In this document: piece after piece, positions 20,332 to 53,996 of the stretch
Layout: every line of letters begins with the position of its first letter
Numbering within the stretch: the first letter of the stretch is position 1
From: Salinispira sp.
GTDB taxonomy: Bacteria > Spirochaetota > Spirochaetia > DSM-27196 > Salinispiraceae
Reading direction: 5' to 3'
Assembly (NCBI GenBank): GCA_965602015.1
Contig: OZ271918.1
Span: 256,001-320,000 of the forward strand
DNA length: 64,000 nt
Translations under genes and position numbers: made by a program
The notes under the pieces: generated by a model
The model's database searches: none
What the model was told of the DNA's origin: nothing
Seen by the model: only the letters and a program-made list of their open reading frames with translations

Positions 20332-20367
20332 CCAGGGTTCCGGGCGTGGAAATGCCCGGGACCCTGG
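20332..20367. terminator. Strong hairpin with GNRA loop after metY (terminator or stabiliser)
   Basis: CCAGGGTTCCGGGCGT-GGAA-ATGCCCGGGACCCTGG, 16-bp stem with G:U pairs; no clear U-tract. Confidence 0.5.
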
Positions 20368-20381
20368 CTTACACTGGTACT

Positions 20382-21908
20382 GTGGATAGCCGCAGTGAAC
20401 TACAGCTCGAAGCCCTCATCAGGGCGCTGCCTCAGATTGTAGTATATCTCGATAATTCCGGAACGGTTATACGCCACAACGCGAATCTCTGCGAGATTCT
20501 TACACCCGGCGTTGAAGACATAAGCGGCGAGGCAGTCATCGACTACCTGCACCCCTGGAGCGAAAGCGATGCCCGGGAGCTCGCCCGTTTATTGGCGTTT
20601 CCGCTCCGGGAAGACGAGGATGTCCGGGTCGAGTATGCGGTTTCCCTCAAGACCAGCTGGTCTAGCCGGGGAATTTTCCGAGCAGAACTGCGCCGGTCGC
20701 CCGCATGGGATGACGGCCAGACTCCTTCGTACCTGCTTATCCTGGAAGACGTGACGAGCCTCAGGCAAATGGAGGAAGAGTACCGGAGGGTCCAGAGAAT
20801 ACAGGGACTGCTTCCTCTGATCAGGGGCTTCGGCGCGGATTATAAAGAACGGCTGACGGTGATGTACGGGAATGTGGATTTCGCCCTGGAGCTTATCAAG
20901 GACGATTCCCGCCCCGAAAGCGAGCGGCTGAGGGAAATCAGAGACAGCCTGAGTTCAATTATCAAAAATCTCGAACGAAGCAATGGCAGATTGGATAATA
21001 TTCTCTGGATGACCGACGGCGGCCGACGCAACATCGGCGAGTTTTCCCTCTCCGATGCGGTGAGGGAGGTTGGCGAACAGTCGATACTCGGAAGTAATAA
21101 AAGCCTCGACATCATAATGGGGAACCCCCTGCCTCCATTCCACGGAGATTATGAAAAAATCCTGCAGATGCTCCAGAACATTATGATAAATGCGGTACAG
21201 GCGGGAAACGAAGCCTACCAGGTGTCGGTGAGCGTCGAGTCAGTAACTCGGGCCGACGGAGAATACGCCATGATCAGCATCGCCGACCACGGGGACGGTA
21301 TGAGCCTGGATCTGATGGCCAGGGCTGAACAGCCATTCTTTACAACGAAGGACCAAGCCGATGGCCTGGGCCTGTTTATCGCAAAAAATATCGCCCTGGA
21401 ACACGGCGGCTCTATCGAAATCCAGAGCACTTCCGGAAAAGGAACAACGGTACATATGTATCTACCATTTCATCGGCATCAGCAGAAGTCTAGAGTCCAA
21501 CGACAAATACCCGATGGACTAAAAATCCTCATACTTGACGATAACCCTGATATCCAGGACATCTGGGAACGGCTTTTGTACCAGCTCGGCATACAGGGGA
21601 GTTTTGTCACCAGTCCCTCCCACGCCTACGACAGTTTTGAGCGTGCATCTCAGTCGGATTATCCCTTTCACATGGTTATTCTCGAGGACAGTCAACATCA
21701 CATTCCCGGGGTCTTTCAGCTTCTCAGAAGGATGAAAAAGCTCGCGCCGGATTTGATCGCAATTTATACTTCCAGCCACAGCCCAAGCTTTACTGTCGAT
21801 GAGCTTGTAGCAAAAGGATTCTCAGCGTATCTGCGCAAACCATTCAGGCTAATTGATTTCCAAAATGCTTTGATAAAGGCTTTGTACAAGGGCGGGGGGG
21901 GCGACTGA
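20382..21908 (+). CDS. PAS-HisKA-HATPase-receiver hybrid protein with degenerate phosphorylation sites
   Basis: N/G1/F/G2 boxes (NIMINAVQA, DHGDGM, FFTTK, GLGL); receiver ILILDD...KPF. Start GTG 20382 or 20346. Confidence 0.8.
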   Translation: MDSRSELQLEALIRALPQIVVYLDNSGTVIRHNANLCEILTPGVEDISGEAVIDYLHPWSESDARELARLLAFPLREDEDVRVEYAVSLKTSWSSRGIFRAELRRSPAWDDGQTPSYLLILEDVTSLRQMEEEYRRVQRIQGLLPLIRGFGADYKERLTVMYGNVDFALELIKDDSRPESERLREIRDSLSSIIKNLERSNGRLDNILWMTDGGRRNIGEFSLSDAVREVGEQSILGSNKSLDIIMGNPLPPFHGDYEKILQMLQNIMINAVQAGNEAYQVSVSVESVTRADGEYAMISIADHGDGMSLDLMARAEQPFFTTKDQADGLGLFIAKNIALEHGGSIEIQSTSGKGTTVHMYLPFHRHQQKSRVQRQIPDGLKILILDDNPDIQDIWERLLYQLGIQGSFVTSPSHAYDSFERASQSDYPFHMVILEDSQHHIPGVFQLLRRMKKLAPDLIAIYTSSHSPSFTVDELVAKGFSAYLRKPFRLIDFQNALIKALYKGGGGD

Positions 21909-21913
21909 TATCT

Positions 21914-22057
21914 GTGCCCCCAAAACAGCTGATTTTATGACCGTAAAACAAGGTGTGAGAATGATGTACACGATTTTTGGCGATGAGCGAAATGAACGGC
22001 AGCTAATTCCTGTCCCGAAAAATGATTAGTCGGTTTAAATCAGCTGTTTTCGGGGCA
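21914..22057. mobile_element. Short TIR-bounded non-autonomous element, copy A; right TIR interrupted by IS110
   Basis: Left GTGCCCCCAAAACAGCTGAT (21914-21933); right ATCAGCTGTTTTCGGGGCA (22039-22057), continued by CTA at 23363-23365. Reconstructed length 145 bp. Confidence 0.85.
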
Positions 22058-22232
22058 TATCTGAAAGCGGTGCCTCCCCGCAAGAGTTTTCATTGTTCTA
22101 TTACAAAAATTCTGCAAATCGGTTTTGTCCGAGTCATATCTCCGCCATCCACGTGGCATGAAAATGTCCTTCCAGGGGTGTCGCAATCACTTTGCACAGC
22201 CTCGTATTCGCGCTGTAGCCCCAAAAACGCGC
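22058..22232 (-). ncRNA. Putative bridge/seek RNA of the IS1111-type element
   Basis: Non-coding region downstream of the transposase with segments matching target (UUUUUGGGGC; AAGUG) and donor junction (UUUCAUGCCA; AGAUAUGA) around short hairpins. Boundaries approximate. Confidence 0.75.
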
Positions 22233-23285
22233 TTACCCCTGTCTGGACAAACCCGCTAATGCAGGATCTTTGTAATGCTGTTCTTTCTGCAATATCCAAA
22301 ATATTGCTTCTGCTAAGTGCCGTGCCACGGCGATTATTGCAACCTTATGATTACGTTTAGTACGAACTCTCTTGTAGAGTTTTACCGTATGTCGGTTCGC
22401 CCAATTTCTTTGATTAAGACAGGTTACATTAGCTGCTTCAGTAAGTGCCCACTTCAAGTATCGATTACATGCTTTCGATGTTCGACCATAATGAGTTTTA
22501 CCTCCGCTCGAGTGAACGCGCGGCGTTGTACCACAGTATGATGCAAAATGTTCAGCGGTCTTAAAGCGATGTATGTCTCCAATTTCATGCACAATGACTG
22601 CGCTGAGAATAAATCCGATCCCGGGAATGTATTTCACCAACTTCATTTCAGCATTTTCATCAAACGCTTCATGCATTCGTTGTTCGCAGTCGGTGATAGA
22701 TTGCTTAATAAACGCGAGATTATCGAGCTTGAGTTTCATCATGGTGCGGGTATGCTCGGGGAGTTTTGGCATTACCTTCTTCATGGCTTCTGTACCTGCT
22801 TTTCCGAACAGATCGCTCACATCATTGAATCGAAACCCATATTTCTCGAACCCGGCATGAATTTGGTTCTTTTCACGTATCAACTCCTGAACGAACTGCA
22901 TCCGGGTTCGATAGAGTTCTCGTTTATCACGCAATTCTCCTGGTGGAATCCACACAGTAGGCAGTGTGCCTGCTTTTTGAAGTTTATTGAGACCTTCAGC
23001 ATCGAGTTTGTCAGTTTTGTTAAACATGGCCATCATCAATTTTGACTTACCGGCATGTACCAGCAAGGGGTTCATGCCGGCCTCCTCAATCTCATCCACA
23101 ATCCAGTACCAACTTCCGATTGTTTCAAGTGCGACTTCCTGTCCCGGCTCAAATTGTTGGAGAAAATCACGAATACACCCGTGAGAATGTTCTATGCGCT
23201 GTGAGGATTTCCTTCCTTTTTCGTCCTCAATTGCAGCCACGGTATACCGTTTATGGCTGTCGAGGGATATAATAATACTACTCAT
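22233..23285 (-). CDS. IS110-family DEDD transposase/recombinase
   Basis: SLDSHK (D), ALETIG (E), KTDKLDA (DD), IPGIG, FASYCGTTPRVHSSGG (catalytic Ser region), AIIAVARHL; GGAGGA RBS. Confidence 0.95.
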   Translation of the reverse strand: MSSIIISLDSHKRYTVAAIEDEKGRKSSQRIEHSHGCIRDFLQQFEPGQEVALETIGSWYWIVDEIEEAGMNPLLVHAGKSKLMMAMFNKTDKLDAEGLNKLQKAGTLPTVWIPPGELRDKRELYRTRMQFVQELIREKNQIHAGFEKYGFRFNDVSDLFGKAGTEAMKKVMPKLPEHTRTMMKLKLDNLAFIKQSITDCEQRMHEAFDENAEMKLVKYIPGIGFILSAVIVHEIGDIHRFKTAEHFASYCGTTPRVHSSGGKTHYGRTSKACNRYLKWALTEAANVTCLNQRNWANRHTVKLYKRVRTKRNHKVAIIAVARHLAEAIFWILQKEQHYKDPALAGLSRQG

Positions 23286-23367
23286 TTGGTTGTCCTCCTC
23301 CGGTATTTAATATAGACCCTGACTGGCAGGATCTCGGGGGAGGCACCGCTTTCATACCATCACTATG

Positions 23368-23877
23368 TTATTTATCCTCAAGATATTTGCGAACGTCGCT
23401 TTCCGTAGCGTTTAAGGGCCCGGAAGTGAGCATGGGAGGCGATTTGATGGATTCGGCGCTCATCATTGCGGCTATCCGCTGAAGCGCGGATATTAAGTGC
23501 ATTTTTTCCCACTCTTGGAGGGCTTCGAACTCCTCGGTAAAGTCTTCCTGCAGAAGATTCGGTGCGGCGTTGAGTATGGCAAGGGCATCTTCTGAAAGCA
23601 CAATGCTCACCTTACGCTTGTCCTCGCTACTGCGCACCCTCTGTACCATCTGCTGTTTTTCCAGGCGGTCGAGAATGCTGGTTACCGTCGCCTGGCTGAG
23701 GCTGATTTTTTTTGAAACTTCGCCGATGGTTTTGCTACTGTCCTTGTGTAGCTCTTTTAGCACCAGAAGTTGCGGTCCCGTGAGTCCGTACCGCTTCGCC
23801 AGGTCTCGGGAATGCAGGTCTATTGCGCGGATTATTTGCCTGAGGGTAGTCAATATGAGTTCGCTGTAATTTTCCAC
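23368..23877 (-). CDS. MarR-family regulator, EctR/CosR-like
   Basis: LRQIIRAIDLHSR...GLTGPQLLVL...SLSQATVTSILDRLE...DKRK; divergent from an osmolyte transporter. Confidence 0.85.
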   Translation of the reverse strand: MENYSELILTTLRQIIRAIDLHSRDLAKRYGLTGPQLLVLKELHKDSSKTIGEVSKKISLSQATVTSILDRLEKQQMVQRVRSSEDKRKVSIVLSEDALAILNAAPNLLQEDFTEEFEALQEWEKMHLISALQRIAAMMSAESIKSPPMLTSGPLNATESDVRKYLEDK

Positions 23878-27479: not shown

Positions 27480-27519
27480 ATCAGCTGTTTTGGGGGCACG
27501 CCAGTTTTGGGGCACGCCA
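27480..27519. repeat. Solo TIR of the repeat family plus a tandem partial duplicate
   Basis: ATCAGCTGTTTTGGGGGCAC (27480-27499, perfect); GTTTTGGGG(G)CACGCCA at 27487-27503 and 27504-27519. Confidence 0.85.
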
Positions 27520-40119: not shown

Positions 40120-40264
40120 GTGCCCCCAAAACAGCTGATTTGTGCGGTGTAACTCTTTGTGTGAAAATAAAAAAGTGGAGTTTTATCAAGGGCTTCAATG
40201 GATGACAGATAAATTACATCATGAAAAGGGATTACGCTGTTTAAATCAGCTGTTTTGGGGGCAC
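40120..40264. mobile_element. Short TIR-bounded non-autonomous element, copy B (145 bp)
   Basis: Perfect TIRs GTGCCCCCAAAACAGCTGATTT / AAATCAGCTGTTTTGGGGGCAC; flanks GTA / TAC. Confidence 0.9.
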
Positions 40265-45452: not shown

Positions 45453-45598
45453 GTGCCCCCAAAACAGCTGATTTAAACTCCCTAATTATTGCTCTTGCAA
45501 AAATGTACAAGCGAACCAACATATGAACGTTCGGCTCATTACATTATTTCTTTACATGATAGTATTTGCACCATCCCCATCAGCTGTTTTGGGGGCAC
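45453..45598. mobile_element. Short TIR-bounded non-autonomous element, copy C (146 bp, opposite orientation to A and B)
   Basis: Perfect 20-bp TIRs flanked by TA on both sides; the TTTAAAC-bearing end is on the left. Confidence 0.9.
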
Positions 45599-52746: not shown

Positions 52747-53996
52747 GTGTCCCCAAAACAGCTGATCGAATCAACATAACTCTTTTGCCAGTAGTCTTCT
52801 ATGACACGATTACCAGTTCATAGGAGATTAGCATGGCATTAATCCCTCGTTTCTGTCCGTACTCGGACTGTTCTCAGCATCATCGCGACAGAGAATCAAG
52901 CCGGTGCTGGTTTGTCCGAAACGGCCACTATCACTGCCGCCGCCTCGGTTCTTCCCAGCGCTATCGCTGCAAGCATTGCCGTCGATACTTCTGCGAAAGC
53001 GCGTTCCACCTCGATTATCGCGCACATCATCGCCTCGATTACCGGCGCATCTTCTCTTCAATCAACTCGGCCTCCGGCATTCGCGATATTGCCCGGGAGT
53101 TTTATGTCACCGACAAGGTCATTCTCAATCGGCTGAGCCGATTGTCCCGTCAGGCAATCGCTGCCATGGCCCAGTTATCGAATGATCATACAATCGATGA
53201 GGATATTGCCGTTGATGGGTTTGAAAGCTTTGTGTACAGCCAATACTGGCCAAACAATTTCACTCTCGCGGTAGGTTCCGACAGCCAGGTTGTCTATGCG
53301 TGCGACTATGCACAGATGCGGCGCAAAGGGCGGATGACCCCCGCACAAAAGCGCCGGCGCGATGAGCTCAATCGCCGGTATCCTATTGCAGGGGGACAAA
53401 TTGCGCGATCTTTCCGGGATGTGATAAACACCATTCTTCCCCGGTGGAAGGCTTATTCATCTAAGAAGCCATGCTATCTCTTGAGCGATGAAAAACTCGA
53501 ATACCGCCGTGAGCTCTGCGCTCACCGGGACTGGGCGGCGTTGGAAAATGCAGGGCGGGTTATCCATCACCGAACCTCATCGAGGGTGGTCAGGACCACT
53601 GAAAACCCGCTGTTTCCTGTGAATTACCTGGATCGGGAGATACGAAAGGATCAATCCTGTCATGTCCGCCAGAGTGTCCAATGGTCAAAATCGGTGAACA
53701 ACAGCATGGAGCGGATGATGATCTACATCGCCTATCATAACCTGCTCAAGCCGTATCGGATAAACGGACGTAACGATATCAGCCATGGTGAGGTTGCCGG
53801 GTTTGACCGAAGGCGGGTACTCACGTTGGCAAAAAGGATGTTTACACAGCGGGCCTTCGTTCATCATCTGGTGTTGGACATCAGCCAATGGAAGACCTGG
53901 CACCGGATCTGGAAGACACCGGTGAGTGCGCTGAAGATCGATCTACCCGATTATGCGGTGGCCTGAGGAGCGGGAAATCAGCTGTTTTGGGGGCAC
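52747..53996 (+). mobile_element. 1250-bp transposase-encoding member of the TIR family (IS1-like)
   Basis: GTGTCCCCAAAACAGCTGAT (52747-52766) / ATCAGCTGTTTTGGGGGCAC (53977-53996) enclose a single ORF; no flanking direct repeat. Confidence 0.88.
52833..53966 (+). CDS. IS1-like single-ORF transposase (Zn ribbon, HTH, RNase H fold)
   Basis: CPYSDC...NG...QRYRCKHC (InsA-like Zn ribbon), GIRDIAREF HTH, AVDGFE and LSDEK acidic motifs, VNYLDREIR...WSKS...YHN; AGGAG RBS. Confidence 0.75.
   Translation: MALIPRFCPYSDCSQHHRDRESSRCWFVRNGHYHCRRLGSSQRYRCKHCRRYFCESAFHLDYRAHHRLDYRRIFSSINSASGIRDIAREFYVTDKVILNRLSRLSRQAIAAMAQLSNDHTIDEDIAVDGFESFVYSQYWPNNFTLAVGSDSQVVYACDYAQMRRKGRMTPAQKRRRDELNRRYPIAGGQIARSFRDVINTILPRWKAYSSKKPCYLLSDEKLEYRRELCAHRDWAALENAGRVIHHRTSSRVVRTTENPLFPVNYLDREIRKDQSCHVRQSVQWSKSVNNSMERMMIYIAYHNLLKPYRINGRNDISHGEVAGFDRRRVLTLAKRMFTQRAFVHHLVLDISQWKTWHRIWKTPVSALKIDLPDYAVA

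Follow-up and report, generated by a model that had tools for sequence, protein, structure and literature searches.

What brings an insertion sequence to rest inside the terminal inverted repeat of a different transposon? The question arises in a 64,000-nucleotide stretch of a Salinispira sp. genome (contig OZ271918.1, positions 256,001 to 320,000; hereafter the window), where an insertion sequence (IS) of the IS110 family with an IS1111 layout occupies 22058..23362 on the minus strand and measures 1305 bp including one copy of its 2-bp core. The core, CA on the plus strand and TG on the element strand, lies at 22056..22057, is repeated at 23361-23362, and is present in all 10 copies of the element in the genome. 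Excising 22058-23362 gives back ATCAGCTGTTTTCGGGG-CA-CTA with CA, carried by both junctions, as the common core, as the initial annotation of this DNA had proposed. The restored repeat does belong to a family of terminal inverted repeats (TIRs), the 22-mer having nine matches in the window and none in 100 shuffles. The evidence set out below indicates that the IS sits at GGGG-CA-CT within host TIRs at eight of its nine independent sites, very probably by means of a base-pairing RNA encoded behind its recombinase gene.

Nine of the 10 genomic copies are full-length (98.9-100% identical, with identical ends) and one is broken by a 1310-bp insert. Because the IS has at one place been duplicated in tandem together with 255 bp of flank, the copies represent nine independent sites, each with a different outer flank. 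The expectation in the initial annotation that mapped copies would fall at GGGG-CA-CT in the TIR family held for eight of them: seven are in the main (family-1) TIRs, comprising three ends of autonomous transposons, three miniature elements (minis) and one unpaired repeat, and one (genome 1709278) is in a second, related TIR family (family 2). The ninth (genome 331373) has the same motif outside any repeat found. All nine fit TT.GGGG-CA-CT in the same orientation. With IS copies removed, the genome contains TT.GGGGCACT 82 times, 72 of them inside family-1 TIRs, so that seven family-1 insertions among nine are close to what motif frequency predicts. The narrower TTTT[CG]GGGGCACT occurs 72 times, 71 of them in TIRs, and the sole exception is the IS-occupied site at 331373. 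Since every site fits TT.GGGGCACT, including the non-repeat one and that in the sister TIR, TT-N-GGGG-CA-CT alone appears to be needed and the inner part of the TIR, ATCAGCTG, to be dispensable. This motif is the end common to the two host subfamilies, which makes for ~80 landing sites, mostly repeat-borne.

The occupied host in the window is a mini at 21914..22057, 145 bp long including its last base, displaced to 23363, with TIRs at 21914-21933 and 22039-22057; a single sister copy of its interior is present in another part of the genome. With ≤2 mismatches allowed over 18 bases, there are 126 main TIRs: 12 pairs bracket elements of 1248-1250 bp, 29 pairs bracket minis of 135-147 bp, 4 pairs lie back to back, and the other 36 TIRs are unpaired. 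Within the window, an autonomous host transposon with the same TIR lies at 52747..53996 (plus strand, 1250 bp), unoccupied minis at 40120..40264 (145 bp) and 45453..45598 (146 bp), and an unpaired TIR match at 27480..27499 (plus strand). The autonomous elements encode a 377-aa protein (open reading frame (ORF) 52833-53966 in the window) that is present in 12 copies of 97-100% identity and has 130 homologues at E 1e-20, those that are named being from spirochaetes. No match to it by a Pfam family exceeded the cut-off, PDB sequences searched with a profile yielded zinc-finger noise only, and the IS1 profile NF033558 scored 35.5 bits against a cut-off of 100. A structural model built from 110 aligned sequences (predicted local distance difference test (pLDDT) 92, compared with 32 for a single-sequence model) resembled integrases and the ISCth4 transposase with Z 11.4-11.6 (root-mean-square deviation 3.5 over 154 residues, 8.6 over 242). 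The DDE/RNase H catalytic fold predicted by this model justifies speaking of another element's TIR. Judged from the modelled fold, the host is a DDE transposon, IS1-like but failing the IS1 profile. With IS1 it has in common N-terminal zinc-binding cysteines, a helical region, the predicted DDE/RNase H fold, short TIRs and miniature derivatives; unlike IS1, it falls short of the profile cut-off, has a single 377-aa ORF and shows no flanking direct repeat. IS1 elements make 8-9 bp target duplications, and inspection by eye of the sequence beside the 12 autonomous copies revealed no direct repeats.

The base that follows the TIR is T at 21 of 21 free autonomous ends and 52 of 55 free mini ends, and the next is A at only 4 of 21 and 28 of 55, respectively; at 15 of the 21 autonomous ends it is again T. 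The initial annotation's "TIR plus TA" therefore fails as a family rule, and a TA target duplication by the host, considered as a candidate, was rejected on the same counts and on the lack of flanking direct repeats. Were the C that follows the core the last base of the host, the IS would have inserted a single base away from the host's tip. The second host subfamily has 14 TIR copies (TTCAACAAGCTT..GGG[CT]A) and minis of ~110 bp, and its repeats also bracket a 34%-identical transposase gene, interrupted by other sequence (genome 2757300-2760735). Of two further genomes of the genus, one (G405) carries the same TIR, with 63 matches; its gap orthologous to the present locus contains neither mini nor IS, and is too diverged to fix the ends of the host. 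A REP/REPIN system (repetitive extragenic palindromes mobilized by a REP-associated tyrosine transposase, RAYT) was likewise rejected, the host repeats bounding a 12-copy gene of predicted DDE fold and not a single-copy HUH (RAYT) transposase.

The IS encodes a DEDD recombinase of 350 aa (22233..23285, minus strand) in which D9, E54, D92, D95 and the S-G pair at 260-261 are invariant or nearly so among 46 aligned proteins. It comprises domains PF01548 and PF02371, scores 223 bits against the NCBIfam IS110 model NF033542 (cut-off 140) and matches the IS621 recombinase at E 1e-10. The element has several of the features by which IS110 elements are broadly recognized: a DEDD RuvC-like domain together with a PF02371 domain bearing the catalytic S-G motif, a fixed target, a single orientation, a common 2-bp core and no new duplication. 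Its architecture is that of IS1111. Subterminal inverted repeats at 22062..22079 (downstream, right end) and 23337..23354 (upstream, left end) are 100% complementary over 18 bp, which is 1 bp above the quoted range; such repeats are usually 11-13 bp, and 7-17 bp in the available part of PMC11208160, and those of the homologues are mostly 9-17 bp. The circle junction would have 12 bp between the perfect repeats, and the terminal extensions are 7 + 3 bp counting the next pair, which is mismatched here and matched in homologues such as L068 and L124. There are 175 bp of non-coding sequence downstream of the recombinase gene, compared with 77 bp upstream. The serine motif reads GTTP----SG, that of the IS1111 clade logo GL-P----S/TG. 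We claim an IS1111 layout and not strict phylogenetic membership of IS1111. In a tree of the homologue clade (64 rows), the recombinase forms a long branch with no supported sister.

The non-coding region behind the recombinase gene is predicted to specify a bridge or seek RNA (predicted extent 22110..22250, minus strand), with a conserved, covarying scaffold and a fold z-score of −2.72 (0/200 shuffles); no Rfam family matched it. Pairing in the scaffold, which was drawn from the alignment, reaches 95.7% across 46 sequences and 80.5% when these are shuffled (0/500), a figure biased in the scaffold's favour because the structure was fitted by eye to the same 46 sequences; two-sided changes occur at 16 of its 21 pairs. 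All parts of the RNA lie on the minus strand. The putative target loop begins with a first guide, UUUUUGGGGC (22218..22227), which reads nine TIR bases plus the first core base and lies, as in the homologues, between a GCGCG anchor and a U-G-closed hairpin. Reading a single core base is also the habit of 9 of 47 parsed homologues. After the hairpin (22195..22217), which is longer than its homologues, comes a second guide, CAAAGUG (22188..22194), reading the core, the last TIR base and the outer flank. The first guide complements the element-sense strand and the second equals it, which is the IS1111 order, in which the top-strand target match precedes the bottom-strand match (PMC11187229, sections 4 and 9). 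The next dinucleotide, AU (22186..22187), matches the two donor bases beside the core, as its counterpart does in 31 of 41 homologues, and by analogy with IS621, as described in part of PMC11208158, is predicted to serve as a handshake. In the donor loop, the handshake base tracks the target in 9 of the 20 homologues that are informative, and does not do so here.

The putative donor loop consists of a first guide, ACAUUUUCA (22159..22167), of whose bases 5 are identical to the donor end, 2 wobble and 2 mismatch; a hairpin (U-GCCA ... UGGC-G, 22143..22158, helix 4 of the drawn structure), in which 99.6% of cells are paired over the 46 sequences and 4 of 5 pairs show two-sided changes; and a second guide, GAGAUAUG (22135..22142). 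The mismatched positions of the first donor guide, 2 and 6, are also mismatched in 37 and 23 of 40 homologues, respectively. Three of the four guide assignments in the initial annotation were sound, UUUUUGGGGC at 22227-22218, AAGUG at 22192-22188 and AGAUAUGA at 22141-22134 all being correctly placed, as was the ACAGC/GCUGU hairpin. The fourth, UUUCAUGCCA, matches donor-left at 9/10 but lies 3 nt out of register with the core, since UGCCA at 22158-22154 is the 5′ arm of the donor-loop hairpin; the covariation of 22164 and 22163 with donor positions +4 and +3 (below) places the first donor guide at 22167-22159 instead. When the non-coding region (152 nt) was dinucleotide-shuffled 5000 times, the three correctly placed guide matches never occurred together; separately they occurred in 33, 2 and 12 of the 5000.

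A single-protein scan of GTDB contigs found no relative. An alignment query returned 385 and 551 relatives, from which 80 + 80 loci were kept, giving 160 at 46-58% identity. Both ends could be located in 114 of these, the core being TG in 113 and CG in one. The 100 loci with enough flank reduced to 65 representatives of <80% identity, among which 56 different 8-mers surround the core. In these 65, the columns that align with 22193-22190 carry the same base as target positions −4 to −1 in 83-94% of cases, against 26-34% expected, the guide-target covariation for which the initial annotation had called; columns of the first target guide complement target +1 to +5 in 62-89% (26-48% expected), and donor-guide columns match in 72-100% (32-51% expected). 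Within the last set, 22164 is tied to donor +4 (78% versus 32%), 22163 to donor +3 (72% versus 38%), and 22138 to donor position −2, which it equals in 65 of 65 homologues (51% expected). Inheritance alone seems unlikely to have produced such agreement, because the targets are diverse. A guide-hairpin-guide parse succeeded for 47 of the 65 homologues (14 failed on anchors and 4 were not split); the parser did not split the present copy, and its first target guide was placed by hand from the anchors. On its own nine sites this copy's guides score 8.89 of 11, whereas the guides of the 47 homologues score 3.37 on average and 7.2 at best; on their own targets, those homologues score 8.85.

Built on the ends, copies and sites of the IS, the host family, the sequence matches and the homologue covariation, all of which are shown by the sequences, a mechanism can be suggested by analogy with work on IS621 and ISEc11-type elements. 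The IS would leave as a circle whose junction makes a promoter (predicted as TTGCGG-18 bp-TATGAT), from which recombinase and RNA would be transcribed together. The target loop would pair with about nine TIR bases on one strand and with the core, the last TIR base and the outer flank on the other, the donor loop would pair with the circle junction, and strand exchange at the CA core would leave no new duplication of the target. The original proposal of an RNA-guided element that uses a TIR family as its landing pad stands as an inference from the sequences.

RNA guidance is a likely reading of the sequence, but several points weigh against it. Simple pairing without weighting does not explain the specificity: scored with equal weights, the real sites reach 9.5-12.5, and 1338 genome sites, 114 of them TIRs, score at least 9.5. 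With that many sites at or above the weakest real one, core-proximal bases must weigh more. Four of the seven family-1 insertions are in TIRs with G at position −5, a variant that the guide mismatches. This copy has an 8-nt insertion, and the automatic alignment puts its first target guide out of register; its first donor guide is weak (5/9 identities), and a single-sequence free-energy fold recovers the target loop but not the open donor loop. The −35 box is degenerate here (TTGAC occurs near the end in 101 of 115 loci), and permutation z-scores for the covariation are overstated, the homologues being related.

The weak donor guide is also what might be expected if only the target loop mattered, the RNA being a short seekRNA, the ends being read by protein at the subterminal repeats and the donor loop being dispensable here, a possibility that would alter the mechanism and not the target. 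It is consistent with the donor-loop handshake base, which is A, the default of the family, against a C in the target, and with the predominant RNAs of ISEc11, ISKpn4 and ISPa11, which in PMC11187229 (section 9) are 82-96 nt target-matching species. We nonetheless consider it unlikely, because donor-guide columns covary with donor ends across the 65 homologues, this copy maintains the donor-loop hairpin with an A-U pair at a position that is G-C in most homologues, and the second donor guide matches at 7 of 8 positions.

A wider interpretation of RNA guidance, and a rather improbable one, is an arms race between an RNA-guided IS and an uncatalogued, duplication-free DDE family, with TIR variants as escape alleles and insertion controlling the spread of host and minis. 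The guide would read the terminal motif of two subfamilies plus the host's preferred flank, and insertion one base from the tip would park the host or rewrite its last base. The only two TIR variants common in this genome (C/G at −5 and C/G at the terminal position) both lie under the guide, and none of the 30 terminal-G ends is hit. Escape by terminal G was tried as an explanation and dropped, since, with 93 of the 126 TIRs ending in C, the fact that all seven family-1 hits are among these does not reach significance (p = 0.12; Fisher 0.19). The escape idea is weakened further by the hits in −5 G variants, by variation at other positions too in G405, and by host relatives that begin with either AGTG or ACTG.

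It seems very improbable that choice of the TIR depends on more than pairing, for example on a DNA structure or on host transposase bound to it, and that the RNA match is secondary or a coincidence. Such a choice would accommodate the many unoccupied non-TIR sites left by simple pairing scores, and ISPpu10, in the accessible part of bioRxiv 10.64898/2026.03.19.712850, needs a target stem-loop besides pairing; against it, one insertion is in non-repeat DNA and one in a sister TIR with different inner sequence, the family-1 share (7/9) follows motif frequency (72/82), and the guide match is specific among 47 alternatives. Slightly harder still to credit is an origin of the guide at an ordinary chromosomal site like 331373, the TIRs being hit only through resemblance, for although the sole non-TIR TTTT[CG]GGGGCACT is occupied (1/1, compared with 7/71 TIR copies), 71 of the 72 motif copies are TIRs, the TIR family also occurs in G405 of the same genus (63 matches), and the second guide predicts the flank C-TTT, free autonomous ends having T (21/21) and then T (15/21).

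How, then, does RNA-guided insertion into host TIRs compare with known systems? IS4321 and IS5075 reportedly target the TIRs of the Tn21 family, to go by the title of Partridge and Hall 2003. By description, they resemble the present IS in being IS1111-type, in having subterminal repeats and in using a fixed base in another transposon's TIR; their target is the Tn21-family TIR, whereas the present IS goes to a TIR of ~20 bp that belongs to an uncatalogued IS1-like DDE element and to the minis of that element. The best match among those listed for plasmid records is 31% identical. ISEc11, ISKpn4, ISPst6 and ISPa11, as presented in the available sections of PMC11187229, likewise have a downstream non-coding region with two short target matches, top-strand first, 7 + 3 bp extensions, subterminal repeats and a recombinase of 330-350 aa. 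ISEc11-type targets are there a linear site, attC and REP, rather than a DDE-transposon TIR, and ISEc11-type RNAs were sequenced and reprogrammed, whereas the RNA here is predicted. A covarying donor loop is visible here, and the serine motif is GTTP----SG where theirs is GL-P----SG. Among the sequences in supplementary file 6 of that source, only ISGsu4 and ISMahy12 have the WYW motif, with other motifs alike by eye only, and none has the TTPRV motif of this clade. IS621 (PMC11208160 and PMC11208158, in part) is similar in its two loops with two guides each, 2-bp core, handshake bases and DEDD plus serine residues; its RNA lies upstream of the gene, its core is CT and it has no long subterminal repeats, whereas here the RNA is downstream and the core TG/CA. 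In Coxiella burnetii, 20 of 21 IS1111 copies lie in QMITE2, a MITE (miniature inverted-repeat transposable element), according to the accessible text of PMC5896051, and MITE-type repeats are likewise hit here. In QMITE2 insertion is into a GTAG REP hairpin that lies within the MITE, whereas here the target is the outermost TIR bases, common to minis and an intact autonomous transposon, and for the present element the guide is readable.

The finding is thus a new example of a known habit, not a new mechanism. Targeting of transposon TIRs by IS4321/IS5075 is said to be in print already. Targeting of MITEs by IS1111-type elements is too (Coxiella QMITE2, in the part of PMC5896051 cited above). 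Added here are a corrected donor guide, a second host subfamily, an occupied non-repeat site that narrows the motif, and the predicted host fold. In the openly accessible literature we found nothing on this IS clade or this host family. The RNA predicted for the clade is compact (~125 nt), tightly conserved and two-looped, and an alignment makes its handshake bases and all four guides readable. With a TG core and dozens of natural targets, it offers a ready scaffold for testing donor-loop use in IS1111-layout elements. The host would add to the classes hit by RNA-guided elements an IS1-like DDE transposon with no visible target duplication and with minis of constant length. Should insertion block or alter host transposition, and TIR variants be escape alleles, the pair would represent programmable RNA-guided conflict between transposons.

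Among the IS homologues, the one with a CG core (L064) has second target and donor guides that also end in CG, a natural core change. The targets of four clade members (L043, L048, L051 and L166) look by eye like tRNA genes, and 21 of the 65 representatives, about a third, have an xxA-TG-AC repeat target. Two spirochaete relatives (L060 and L077) were considered as targeting the same host and rejected, with no host transposase found by the query used and a motif count at the control level. No host-transposase match was found in any of the 160 homologue loci, nor was a clade member of 50-60% identity found in five genomes carrying the host family (G405 being 83% complete). At 1e-30, only this genome (G000) and one other (G060) matched among 401 genomes of the phylum.

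The broken IS copy has lost 319 bp, replaced by the 1310-bp insert with inverted ends (genome 1707043-1708352), which we take to be IS3-like. In four DNA runs, which represent one sample, perhaps the source of the assembly, IS depth was about ten-fold, at 319.5 compared with 31.6, and the contigs of that sample list no circle or empty-site joint, which is uninformative either way; neither was used as evidence. The tandem duplication (genome 3399668-3402532) has a junction with only the CA core in common with the target, and its last 10 bases match RNA 22163-22154 at 8/10. It fits the one-sided "half-match" events described in the accessible parts of bioRxiv 10.64898/2026.08.14.744561 and 10.64898/2026.08.31.748434.

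The host transposon belongs to an uncatalogued family and has AA|TT-like flanks; relatives in other genomes have different TIRs, mostly starting A[GC]TG. The long family-2 copy is interrupted by ~2 kb carrying other ORFs, which are presumably IS21-like. Main-family minis are of near-constant length (28 of 29 at 144-147 bp), as are minis in G405 (L212-L216), whereas the interiors of the 29 fall into 18 clusters (13 of them singles, the others of 5, 4, 3, 2 and 2 members), none matching the interior of the autonomous element by BLAST. TIRs ending in T rather than C occur at genome 369907 and 2299104 and at the left end of L211; T is the base that an IS insertion would leave, so that these could be point mutations or hosts that departed from an occupied site. 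The four back-to-back TIR pairs (genome 201918-201961, 400646-400689, 2356763-2356811 and 2681482-2681525) are 4-9 bp apart and form 44-49-bp palindromes. TIRs and IS copies are unevenly spread over the contig, being dense over its first 0.7 Mb, and TIRs of the main family are absent from 1.43-1.91 Mb. In the window, the mini and its IS sit between the converging ends of a PAS/histidine-kinase/receiver gene (20346-21908) and a MarR gene (23368-23877), and transcription of the IS would head toward the 3′ end of the former.

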